Source of the DNA: Candidatus Aenigmatarchaeota archaeon
GTDB taxonomy: Archaea; Aenigmatarchaeota; Aenigmatarchaeia; QMZP01
NCBI GenBank assembly: GCA_043824495.1
Contig: JBDRSV010000024.1
Coordinates: 91,056-155,055, forward strand
Length of the DNA stretch: 64,000 bases
Reading direction: 5' to 3'
In this document: positions 47,035 to 49,560 of the stretch, in pieces
Layout of the letters: the number at the start of each line of letters is the position of its first letter
Position numbering within the stretch: the first letter of the stretch is position 1
Translations under genes and position numbers: made by a program
Notes under the pieces: generated by a model
What the model was told of the DNA's origin: nothing
Seen by the model: only the letters and a program-made list of their open reading frames with translations
The model's database searches: none

Positions 47035-49560
47035 TTATTTTATGATATGAATTGCAACTGATTTTTCATATCCTTTTATGAAATCTTCTACCATGTCTCT
47101 TGCTGTAGTGTCTGAATGTTGTATTGGTGGATGCTTCATGAAATAAGCTGATGGACCTTCTAAGTAGCCTCCGATACCTCTATCTTTTGCTATTTTTGCA
47201 CAGCGAATACCATCTATTACTACACCAGCAGAATTTGGAGAATCTTCTACAGAAAGTCTGAGTTCTAAATTAAGAGGAACATCTCCGAATTTTCTTCCTT
47301 CCATTCTAATGAAACAAATCTTGTTATCTTTCTGCCATGGAACATAATCACTTGGTCCAATATGAATATTTTCTGGTTCTAGTGGTATTGGTAATTGAGA
47401 CTGAACAGCTTCTGTCTTGCTGATTTTTTTGCTCTTGAGTCTTGATCTCTCAAGCATGTTTAGGAAATCTGTGTTATGAACTAATATGTTTGAACAAATA
47501 AACCGTTCAAATGGTTTTGTGCTTATGTCATAAACATACACATCTTTTAATTTTATTTTTCTAATGTTTTTTATCTTAAGGAAGCGAGTATCGCCTGTAC
47601 ATAATTGTTTAATTTTTTCTCTTTCAAACTCACTTTTAACTTTATCCAATTGAGAAAGAACTATATGAGTTCTAATTGATCCGTGTTTGTACCACGTTGT
47701 TGATTTTATTTTCCATTTTTTCAAAAGTTTTATATTTGGTATTCGATGTGTTCCATAACGTTTTAATTTATTATTAGTATTGAGCATTGCCTTTTTCTTG
47801 TAATCTTGTAAAAATCCTACTTTATTTATGAACAATTCCATATCAATTTTTGATGATATTAATCCATGCCAAGCATACCCTAGTTTGCTGTTATATGCAG
47901 TTCTAGTGCTACTATATCTTTCCTTGAAAATTGTTGAATTTATTCCTAATCTCAAAAACAATGTCTGTATATCATTCAAAAGGTCACGAGAAACAGATGT
48001 CCATCTTATCTGTTTTCCTGTAACACCACCATCACCACTTAAATAACCTCTTAAAACTAATGATATTTGTCTATCTGATAAATTAAAAATCCATTCTGGT
48101 ATCCGTTTTGTATAAGCATTTCCCCCTAAACCAATAGCTAACTTAAATATTTTAGACAATATTTTTGAATGAATCCTTACACTAATACCGTCATTTCTAA
48201 CGCTATATCCAATATTAAATCTATCTGTTAAACTATCTATAAGGTACATACACTCAGGTTCAGCACCGCATGCAATTTCTATATTAGATGAACCTTCTCT
48301 ATCATAATTACCATCTGCAATCCATAAACCAACCAACTGTAAAAGATCATCTGTAATTGGGAATTTAACAGGAATTTTTATTTCAGGATGACCACGGACA
48401 TTTATATGACCGTCTGATACACCATCAACTAATAATTTATTACTATATGGACTTAGATCTATACTTTCAATTTCTTCTGATTTAGCATGTGGTAACACTC
48501 TAGGAACAGCAATATACGTTTCATTTCCTTTTAGTATTTTTACAGGGATTTCATTTAATATACCGTCATCGCTTAATGTAAAGACATTATGATCCCCTGT
48601 GATTTTTATTGTCCTACCTTCTTCGGTAGTTATTTCATAAATAGGTTCAGATACCTTATGTCGTATTAGTGCATTTATATCTGATAGGACAACGTTATAA
48701 TTATCATTTATAGTAAAACATCGCATATTTTCATTAATTTCTTTCATAATTACAATGTCTTTTCCATCAGATCTTTTCTTACCATAAAGCTCCAAATAAG
48801 AGTCTATCAAATCTCCAATTTTAACCCGCTTTAATTGATTGTTTATAACTACAGGAACCTCCTGATCTCCTGTTACACTGTTCCCCCCAGTATTCAATTG
48901 ATATGTCCTATCAATCTTTATTCCTCTATCAGAGAATAACTTTGTTAAAACTCTATGTGTAATTGTTGCACCTAATTGACTCTTAATATCATCACCAATA
49001 ATAGGAATTCCTTTTTCCTTGAACTTATCACCCCATTCAGGATTTGATGCAATGAAAACAGGCATACAGTTAATGAATCCAACACCTGCATCTAAACAAG
49101 CTTGTGCATAGAACTTAGTTGCTTCTTCACTTCCAACAGGCATGTAATTAATTAGCACATCAGCCTGACTATCCTTCAACACTTGAACAACATCCACATT
49201 TTTTTTCCCTGATTTTTTAAATCTATTATCTTCAGGATAATTATTCATATGATCTGCTACACCATCTAACACAGGTCCCATCTGAACTTCCACTCCAATG
49301 TGAGGAACATCCTTATAAAATATAGTAGTGTTGTTAGGCTTTGCGAATATTGCTTCCGACAAATCTTTATCTACCTTTCTCTCATCAATATCAAAAGCAG
49401 CTACTGGTTTAATATCAGATATTTTATATTCACCTAGAATATTATGCATTAGACCTGATACTGGTTTACTAGAATCTACATCTTTGTAATAGAATAATCC
49501 CTGAACAAGACTAGAACAACAATTACCAACTCCAGCAAATGCAACCTTTATTTCTGTCAT
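47035..49560 (-). CDS. myo-inositol-1-phosphate synthase interrupted by an intein
   Basis: N-extein through ...YQLNTGGN, C-extein [12 protein letters not shown].... Exteins total about 372 aa, matching archaeal MIPS. Confidence 0.7.
47473..48879 (-). mobile_element. intein (about 469 aa) with LAGLIDADG homing endonuclease
   Basis: Starts [10 protein letters not shown], ends ILVHN followed by Thr(+1). [10 protein letters not shown] and YLSGDGGV are LAGLIDADG motifs. Confidence 0.65.

Follow-up and report, generated by a model that had tools for sequence, protein, structure and literature searches.

An Intein with a Double-Motif LAGLIDADG Endonuclease in the Active-Site Motif of an Archaeal myo-Inositol-1-Phosphate Synthase

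The gene for MIPS (myo-inositol-1-phosphate synthase) in the 64,000-nucleotide stretch of archaeal DNA analysed here (contig JBDRSV010000024.1, positions 91,056 to 155,055; hereafter the window) is interrupted in frame by an insert that we identify, with high confidence, as a class 1 intein with a LAGLIDADG homing endonuclease. Our full conclusion, which we consider very probable, is that the insert is a canonical class 1 intein with a monomeric, double-motif LAGLIDADG endonuclease and that it sits in the active-site motif of the MIPS of a DPANN-type archaeon, probably a member of the Aenigmatarchaeota. A preliminary description, made from the sequence alone, had divided the 841-amino-acid open reading frame (ORF) into exteins of 227 and 145 aa and a 469-aa insert with two LAGLIDADG motifs. 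Cutting the ORF at the named motifs returned exactly these parts, the insert being precursor residues 228–696. The Ser1 start, the ILVHN end and the Thr(+1) that follows it are all present in the translation, as are both LAGLIDADG motifs, at intein residues 182–191 and, as YLSGDGGV, at intein residues 279–286. The MIPS reading frame of 47035..49560 is uninterrupted, and its parts are as follows.

47035..49560, minus strand: MIPS precursor gene, interrupted in frame by the intein (841 aa, ATG start; ORF listing, Pfam and NCBIfam)
48880..49560, minus strand: N-extein, aa 1–227, the NAD-binding part of MIPS, with C-terminal letters YQLNTGGN
47473..48879, minus strand: intein, 469 aa, from Ser1 to His468-Asn469, with C-terminal letters ILVHN
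47035..47472, minus strand: C-extein, aa 697–841 (145 aa), and the stop codon, beginning TDFLNMLER (Thr+1-Asp-Phe)

Profile searches revealed the same composite. In Pfam the 841-aa ORF matched Inos-1-P_synth in two stretches (4.4e-32), Intein_splicing at aa 239–696 (5.3e-20) and LAGLIDADG_3 at aa 500–582 (6.4e-18), far more than chance would give. In NCBIfam the precursor matched TIGR03450 (inositol-3-phosphate synthase; 2.9e-143), likewise split in two stretches; further matches were to the N-terminal region of inteins and to the intein portions of several proteins that contain one. Residue conservation was judged from an alignment of 64 inteins of the family, overall 47–73% identical to the query protein. 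Profiles and alignment together showed that intein blocks A, B, F and G are all present and conserved, and with them endonuclease blocks C, D and E. The main motifs are located as follows.

48841..48879, minus strand: intein block A, Ser1 invariant (64/64), its codon always AGY (family alignment)
48580..48618, minus strand: intein block B, TxxH, with T94 and H97 invariant (family alignment)
47890..48369, minus strand: LAGLIDADG homing-endonuclease core, intein aa 171–330 (Pfam, Foldseek and alignment)
48307..48336, minus strand: endonuclease block C, the first LAGLIDADG motif, with catalytic D189 kept in 63/64
48022..48045, minus strand: endonuclease block E, the second LAGLIDADG motif (YLSGDGGV), with catalytic D283 kept in 63/64
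47473..47541, minus strand: intein blocks F and G, with D451, H468 and N469 invariant

Invariant across the 64 inteins are Ser1, Thr94, His97, Asp451, His468 and Asn469, together with Lys258 and Pro261 of endonuclease block D, which lies just upstream of block E in the protein. Both catalytic aspartates are kept in 62 of the 64 family members, and both are intact, together with K258, in the window copy. The residue at +1 is Thr across the family, with one Ser. Cys was never found at position 1, even though the AGY codon of Ser1 is a single substitution away from a Cys codon. Column conservation is 0.69 in the endonuclease core, as compared with 0.63–0.67 in the splicing parts. Two cysteines, Cys54 (~48718–48720) and Cys462 (~47494–47496), are likewise invariant in 64 of 64 inteins, although splicing relies on Ser and Thr as nucleophiles. 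They may have a structural, disulfide or redox role, and the TFIIB mini-intein does not share C462. The DNA encoding the intein has a GC content of 29.9%, as compared with 34.7% for the exteins and 39.4% for the whole window, a low value that would fit a foreign origin, for which it is weak evidence.

The predicted fold is that of a bifunctional intein. Sequence matches to solved inteins included PI-PkoII (3.5e-17) and TFIIB mini-inteins, and an AlphaFold2 model of the intein, for which 58 family members served as input, had a mean pLDDT of 92.4 and a pTM of 0.92. The best matches to the model in Foldseek were PI-PkoII (TM score 0.73), the TliVMA intein (0.71/0.76), PI-PfuI (0.66/0.68) and PI-SceI; mini-inteins covered the splicing part (5O9I, root-mean-square deviation 1.9 Å), and the endonuclease core matched I-DmoI and I-Tsp061I (TMt 0.59–0.70). 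The insert thus combines the features that assign an element to class 1: insertion in frame, the nucleophiles, blocks B, F and G, and a HINT fold split by an endonuclease. The endonuclease in turn has the two acidic-ended helices of the LAGLIDADG type (blocks C and E), the block D lysine and a pseudo-symmetric alpha-beta-beta-alpha-beta-beta-alpha fold. Blocks C and E bear the catalytic aspartates, the loss of which marks an inactive endonuclease (PMC8966425). By this criterion the window endonuclease is predicted to be active, because D189 and D283 are intact, and we hold with moderate confidence that it is currently so.

What the insert interrupts is a complete enzyme. The joined exteins (372 aa) aligned with Ino1 of Mycobacterium tuberculosis (PDB 1GR0; E 1.5e-133) without a gap across the junction, QLNTGGN/TDFLNMLER in the spliced extein corresponding to QLNVGGN/MDFLNMLER in Ino1 (here and below, the slash marks the insertion point). 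The spliced extein also spanned 355 of 355 TIGR03450 positions in a single stretch, with a score of 499 bits; an intein-free ortholog scored 482 bits, and both scores lie under the equivalog cutoff of 638. With the spliced extein as query, a database search identified at least 120 intein-free MIPS clusters of 360–370 aa that are 70–77% identical to it and that, where named, come from Aenigmarchaeota or Nanoarchaeota. The ortholog from one of them (P0132) sits on a 70-kb contig, locus L002, that is syntenic with the window: in both, a PadR gene is divergent from MIPS, and there follow L7Ae, S28e, L24e, a TP_methylase and an Obg-like GTPase. Because the gene order matches that of the window, we take L002 to be the orthologous empty site. 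At the junction the two DNAs are identical at 70 of 90 bases (approximately 39 of 45 on the C-extein side), the identity over the whole extein being 70%, and the empty site reads ...TACCAGCTCAACACAGGAGGCAAC/ACAGATTTCTTGAACATGCTTGAGAG... in L002. Alignment to intein-less MIPS, which the preliminary description had named as the way to recognize a native domain, therefore spoke for an insertion: the chain is colinear without a gap in 1GR0, in TIGR03450 and in the syntenic L002 ortholog, and the homologs lack the insert and are colinear at the site.

The place at which the intein is inserted is the conserved catalytic and NAD-binding motif of the enzyme, a point that the preliminary description had left to be checked. 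In the alignment with the MIPS of Archaeoglobus fulgidus (mIPS, PDB 1U1I), the insertion point falls between D259 and Y260, in the motif Y-N255-I-L-G-D259/Y-D261-G; the corresponding eukaryotic signature is SYNHLGN/NDG. Residues N255, K274, K278, K306, D332 and K367 of the A. fulgidus enzyme, which are reported to be catalytically important (PMC5614600, citing Neelon et al.), all align to identical extein residues, and for this reason we trust the A. fulgidus numbering. The Asn equivalent to N255, which contacts NAD and substrate, is at position −5 on the N-extein side, and the C-extein bears the equivalents of catalytic K274 (+15) and K278 (+19) and of K306, D332 and K367. The lysines at +15 and +19 belong to a mobile helix that caps the active site (PMC11348189). 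Because the intein parts the N255-equivalent Asn from these two catalytic lysines, the unspliced precursor should be inactive and splicing is expected to be obligatory.

The mechanism that we propose is the ordinary one for such elements. Translation would yield the 841-aa precursor, in which Ser1 would undertake an N-to-O acyl shift at the Asn(−1)-Ser1 bond, aided by Thr94 and His97 of block B and Asp451 of block F. The hydroxyl of Thr+1 would then take over the N-extein by transesterification, Asn469 would cyclise with the aid of His468 to release the 469-aa intein, and an O-to-N shift would leave a native ...GGN-TDF... peptide bond in a 372-aa MIPS. Splicing would in this way be required for the synthesis of inositol phosphate and hence of archaetidylinositol lipids. 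In the DNA, the endonuclease would recognize the conserved sequence across the insertion point in MIPS alleles that lack the intein and cut it there, and the intein would be copied into them during repair (homing). The candidate target consensus that we reconstructed for this predicted cleavage site is CAgnTnAAtnTtGGnGGnAAc/ACnGAtTTcctnAAcATGctnGan. Thr is native at +1 in 118 of 120 close intein-free alleles, which would thus be ready-made hosts.

The intein of the window belongs to a family. A full-length search returned an identical protein (Logan SRR26275509) and 64 further clusters of intein-bearing MIPS, with Aenigmarchaeota, Altiarchaeales, Bilamarchaeaceae, Hodarchaeaceae and Hadarchaeum among the named ones, and the insertion point was identical in all 65 clusters (GGN/S...HN/TDF). 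When two family-specific peptide patterns were run against 185,579 species-representative genomes, a procedure that gives a lower bound, the MIPS intein was found in at least 21 of them. The carriers were Iainarchaeum, Aenigmatarchaeota, Micrarchaeota/Micrarchaeia, Altiarchaeales, Bilamarchaeaceae, Hodarchaeaceae, two Hadarchaeum and two contigs from bacterial bins. The spliced-extein search listed at least 8000 MIPS-type matches, and on this basis intein-bearing alleles make up on the order of 1% or less of MIPS clusters. The two bacterial-binned contigs, L017 and L036, are labelled "bacterium" and "Patescibacteria group bacterium"; they show the archaeal-type PadR-MIPS arrangement, and their exteins are 60–66% identical to that of the window. 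They are probably mis-binned DPANN contigs, transfer to bacteria of the candidate phyla radiation being less likely. In a further metagenome-assembled genome, L009, the intein-bearing MIPS is frameshifted in a poly-A run (L009:2419-2520, intein residues ~33–40), either through an assembly error or because the gene is inactivated. The MIPS homologs of 495–590 aa (P0066–P0069) were considered as carriers of mini-inteins and rejected, their GGN-(M/T)DF motif being uninterrupted.

The family stands apart from other inteins. A word-indexed search with the intein alone gave 16 matches, was uninformative as to family size and was replaced by an exhaustive search of 1.84 billion representatives. This search found no other close relative of the MIPS intein: the MIPS representative was 61% identical, and the other best full-length matches were 28–38% identical. 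Those of the latter that we scanned proved to be inteins with type II/IV-secretion-family ATPases or reverse gyrase as hosts. Some of the MIPS homologs are already labelled [quoted passage not shown] by JGI, and several are labelled "hypothetical protein" or "LAGLIDADG family homing endonuclease" by NCBI.

The distribution of the intein is patchy. At least 42 intein-free clusters are closer in extein to the window than is any intein-bearing allele, and in an extein tree the intein-bearing alleles fall into 16 separate clades, the window extein grouping with intein-free P0132 and P0231. Intein and extein identities are weakly correlated (Spearman 0.29), and in some pairs the inteins are 0.69–0.71 identical and the exteins 0.52–0.57. 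Two Hadarchaeum species (L019 and L020) differ little at nonsynonymous sites of the extein (pN 0.03, pS 0.50) and far more in the intein parts (pN 0.18–0.28, pS 0.82–0.88), which suggests that their inteins have not co-diverged with the host gene but were acquired independently or replaced. Where omega (the ratio of nonsynonymous to synonymous divergence) can be computed, the endonuclease core is under the same selection as the splicing domain and the extein, the respective values between the window and L005 being 0.12, 0.10 and 0.11. In intein-bearing pairs the omega of the extein ranges from 0.04 to 0.11, which shows that the host genes are functional and thereby lends indirect support to splicing of the inteins within them.

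The homing-cycle model predicts empty sites together with intact, degenerate and deleted endonucleases (PMC8966425), and the MIPS intein family shows the predicted stages: empty sites, intact elements, decayed elements and a mini-intein. Active-site substitutions of the endonuclease were found in P0060 (D189Y) and P0052 (D283N), the domain being otherwise intact, and these two alleles likely represent early endonuclease decay. At L036:1619-2383 (JASEJS010000076.1) MIPS carries a 255-aa mini-intein at the same GGN/TDF site, from which the equivalent of window intein aa ~127–352, a part that spans the LAGLIDADG core, has been cleanly deleted and in which blocks A, B, F and G are intact. The segment equivalent to window intein aa ~354–415 is retained in the mini-intein and is for that reason not part of the dispensable endonuclease core.

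Certain points weigh against the interpretation of the element as an intein that splices, cuts and moves at present. The data document architecture, residue conservation, fold, an orthologous site that is empty, a patchy distribution, purifying selection and variants in decay; that the intein splices and that it cuts DNA is deduced from its residues, and its mobility today is likewise a deduction. The extein tree, made by simple neighbour joining and lacking support values, is to be read qualitatively, and synonymous sites are saturated for most pairs, so that omega is given for few comparisons, with pN and pS alongside. The endonuclease could also be conserved because the splicing domain depends on it structurally. 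Divergent hosts yielded no near-identical copy of the intein, the best relative being 70–71% identical, so that nothing points to a very recent transfer into this genome. Finally, a scan of viral contigs turned up none that carries the MIPS intein and did not reveal the route of transfer between phyla.

We weighed three other explanations. That the insert is a native, lineage-specific MIPS domain, or that the ORF is a dead gene or a chimera produced in assembly, is extremely improbable. Apart from the frameshift in the poly-A run of L009 nothing speaks for it, and it would have to contend with intein-free orthologs that are colinear over the junction, with the intein and LAGLIDADG domains and fold of the insert, with the recurrence of the same architecture in ~65 independent clusters drawn from assemblies of NCBI, ENA, JGI and Logan, with the identical protein in the independent Logan assembly of SRR26275509, and with an uninterrupted frame and strong purifying selection on the exteins of intein-bearing alleles. 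A more serious contender, although still an unlikely one, is an intein that splices but whose endonuclease no longer homes, the endonuclease being kept by structural dependence or because little time has passed, and the whole being inherited vertically. The intein searches found no copy more than 75% identical elsewhere, a mutualism between HINT domain and endonuclease has been described (PMC8966425), and two alleles have catalytic substitutions and one lacks the endonuclease domain, all as this explanation would have it. Against it, D189, D283 and K258 are intact here and in 62 of 64 alleles, the endonuclease core is at least as conserved (0.69) as the splicing domains (0.63–0.67) and has an omega of ~0.12, and the L036 mini-intein shows that the splicing domain tolerates loss of the core. 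Nor does vertical inheritance sit well with a patchy distribution in which the nearest exteins are intein-free, or with an intein that is far more diverged than the extein between the two Hadarchaeum species.

It is also conceivable, but in our estimation quite improbable, that co-option has made the intein a post-translational switch, so that conditional protein splicing gates inositol-phosphate and archaetidylinositol synthesis upon an environmental cue. Conditional splicing is documented for other inteins in a survey of archaeal inteins (PMC4760082). The MIPS intein interrupts the active site of the pathway's first committed enzyme, where the segment that leads toward the mobile capping helix begins; its Ser1 is invariant in spite of the proximity of the codon to Cys; and two cysteines that do not act as splicing nucleophiles, C54 and C462, are invariant as well. 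Most close relatives are intein-free, however, the family shows the ordinary decay of the homing cycle, insertion in active sites is a general rule among selfish inteins, and no cue is demonstrated by the present data. Were the switch real, inositol-containing membrane lipids would be gated post-translationally in host-dependent DPANN archaea, in Hadarchaeum and in Hodarchaeales.

As an intein with a homing endonuclease, then, the element can be set beside known systems. PI-PkoII (intein 2 of the Thermococcus kodakarensis DNA polymerase, PDB 2CW7) and PI-PfuI (the ribonucleotide reductase intein of Pyrococcus furiosus, PDB 1DQ3) are likewise large bifunctional archaeal inteins that combine a HINT splicing domain with a double-motif LAGLIDADG endonuclease and with accessory parts that bind DNA. 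PI-PkoII was the best sequence match, and both were among the best fold matches (TM 0.73 and 0.66), but identity is only 16–18%, the lengths are 537 and 454 aa as compared with 469 aa, and they reside in a DNA polymerase and a ribonucleotide reductase rather than in a lipid-precursor enzyme. The VMA inteins TliVMA, with an active endonuclease, and PhoVMA, with a degenerate one (PDB 7QSS and 7QST), have the same overall architecture (TM 0.71/0.76), and their active and decayed endonucleases at one site parallel the intact, substituted and deleted ones of the MIPS family. They differ in host (V-type ATPase subunit A) and in starting with Cys1, the MIPS family having Ser1 and Thr+1 throughout, and identity is ~20%. 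The closest relatives outside MIPS among the 1.84 billion representatives are the inteins of PF00437 type II/IV-secretion-family ATPases and of reverse gyrase, which come from similar organisms (Woesearchaeota and others) and are 28–38% identical, whether along the entire intein or along its endonuclease and C-terminal splicing part. Their hosts and sites are different, whereas members of the MIPS family are 42–72% identical to one another, always lie at GGN/TDF and reach at most ~38% identity with these relatives. Ino1 of M. tuberculosis and mIPS of A. fulgidus, by contrast, are intein-free, and the spliced exteins amount to a complete MIPS with all of the published catalytic residues. At +1 the M. 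tuberculosis enzyme has Met and the A. fulgidus enzyme Tyr, neither of which is competent for splicing, whereas the intein-bearing lineage and its close relatives have Thr.

MIPS had been described as an uncommon intein host, and this is borne out as far as the sources reach. Archaeal intein hosts are reported to belong mainly to replication and repair (66.9%), with nucleotide metabolism at 8.3% (PMC4760082); MIPS lies outside these categories. Inositol is not mentioned in that survey, the supplement of which may still contain a listing. A full-text literature search, which did not cover InBase, found no paper on a MIPS intein. Mechanism and architecture are thus ordinary for archaeal bifunctional inteins, and the architecture has already been annotated automatically in some records; what is new is the host enzyme and the insertion site. 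General understanding of inteins is unchanged by the family, but the list of hosts is widened by a well-populated group (~65 clusters in at least six archaeal lineages, at a single site) in the first enzyme of inositol-lipid synthesis. Its cysteine-free Ser1/Thr+1 junction and its natural 255-aa mini-intein may interest protein engineers, and the endonuclease would represent a new rare-cutting specificity. In addition, reconstructions of pathways may miss MIPS in genomes in which the NCBI names hide the enzyme.

The genes around MIPS bear on the role of the locus and include the following.

49627..49938, plus strand: PadR-family regulator, divergent from MIPS (PF03551, 3.2e-11)
49935..50525, plus strand: CDP-alcohol phosphatidyltransferase, 196 aa (PF01066, 2.8e-16)
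46270..46944, minus strand: PIG-L family (GlcNAc-PI de-N-acetylase/BshB1-like) deacetylase, directly downstream of MIPS (Pfam, 5e-28)
39330..42056, minus strand: type IIG/MmeI-like restriction-modification fusion protein, 908 aa
44028..45038, plus strand: DDE transposase (insertion sequence)

The PadR and phosphatidyltransferase neighbours named in the preliminary description were confirmed by PF03551 and PF01066. Of the two pathways that it had offered for the locus, archaetidylinositol synthesis fits and synthesis of di-myo-inositol phosphate (DIP) does not. The best NCBIfam match of the transferase is archaetidylinositol phosphate synthase (NF040950, 1e-40), although the score of 139.7 bits does not reach the curated cutoff of 180. 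MIPS, the transferase and PadR form a neighbourhood that is conserved across phyla: PadR is divergent from MIPS in most related loci, and the transferase adjoins MIPS in many, including those of Hadarchaeum and Hodarchaeaceae. The DIP-pathway reading of the transferase was rejected, as the protein has no cytidylyltransferase domain and its match to the bifunctional IPCT/DIPPS enzyme scores 64.8 bits against a cutoff of 580. The locus is therefore supported as a putative archaetidylinositol module, the family membership of the transferase not being established by the cutoff.

The PIG-L gene also matches TIGR04001 (2.4e-45, below cutoff). It might, in combination with MIPS and the gene resembling archaetidylinositol phosphate synthase, point to a glucosaminyl-archaetidylinositol pathway, but conservation of the gene does not extend to the syntenic locus L002. 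The restriction-modification fusion gene and the DDE transposase gene, ~2–8 kb from MIPS, are likewise absent from L002, and because of this the flank at 39330–45038 looks variable and rich in mobile DNA. Rfam and tRNA scans of the whole window gave no matches, and the probable assignment to the Aenigmatarchaeota follows the names borne by the nearest proteins and loci.

Two symmetrical sequences lie in the intergenic region between PadR and MIPS (49561–49626). One is an inverted repeat, TTTTACA-GG-TGTAAAA (~49562–49577), that ends 1 nt before the MIPS start codon; a similar repeat, TATTTTAYA-N2-6-TRTAAAATA, is found upstream of MIPS in many related loci (L002, L007, L008, L009, L010, L017, L021 and L036, besides the window). 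We regard it as a candidate PadR operator conserved across lineages. The other is a perfect 16-bp palindrome, AAAGTATATATACTTT (49590–49605), midway between the start codons of PadR and MIPS, which could be a bidirectional TATA element.

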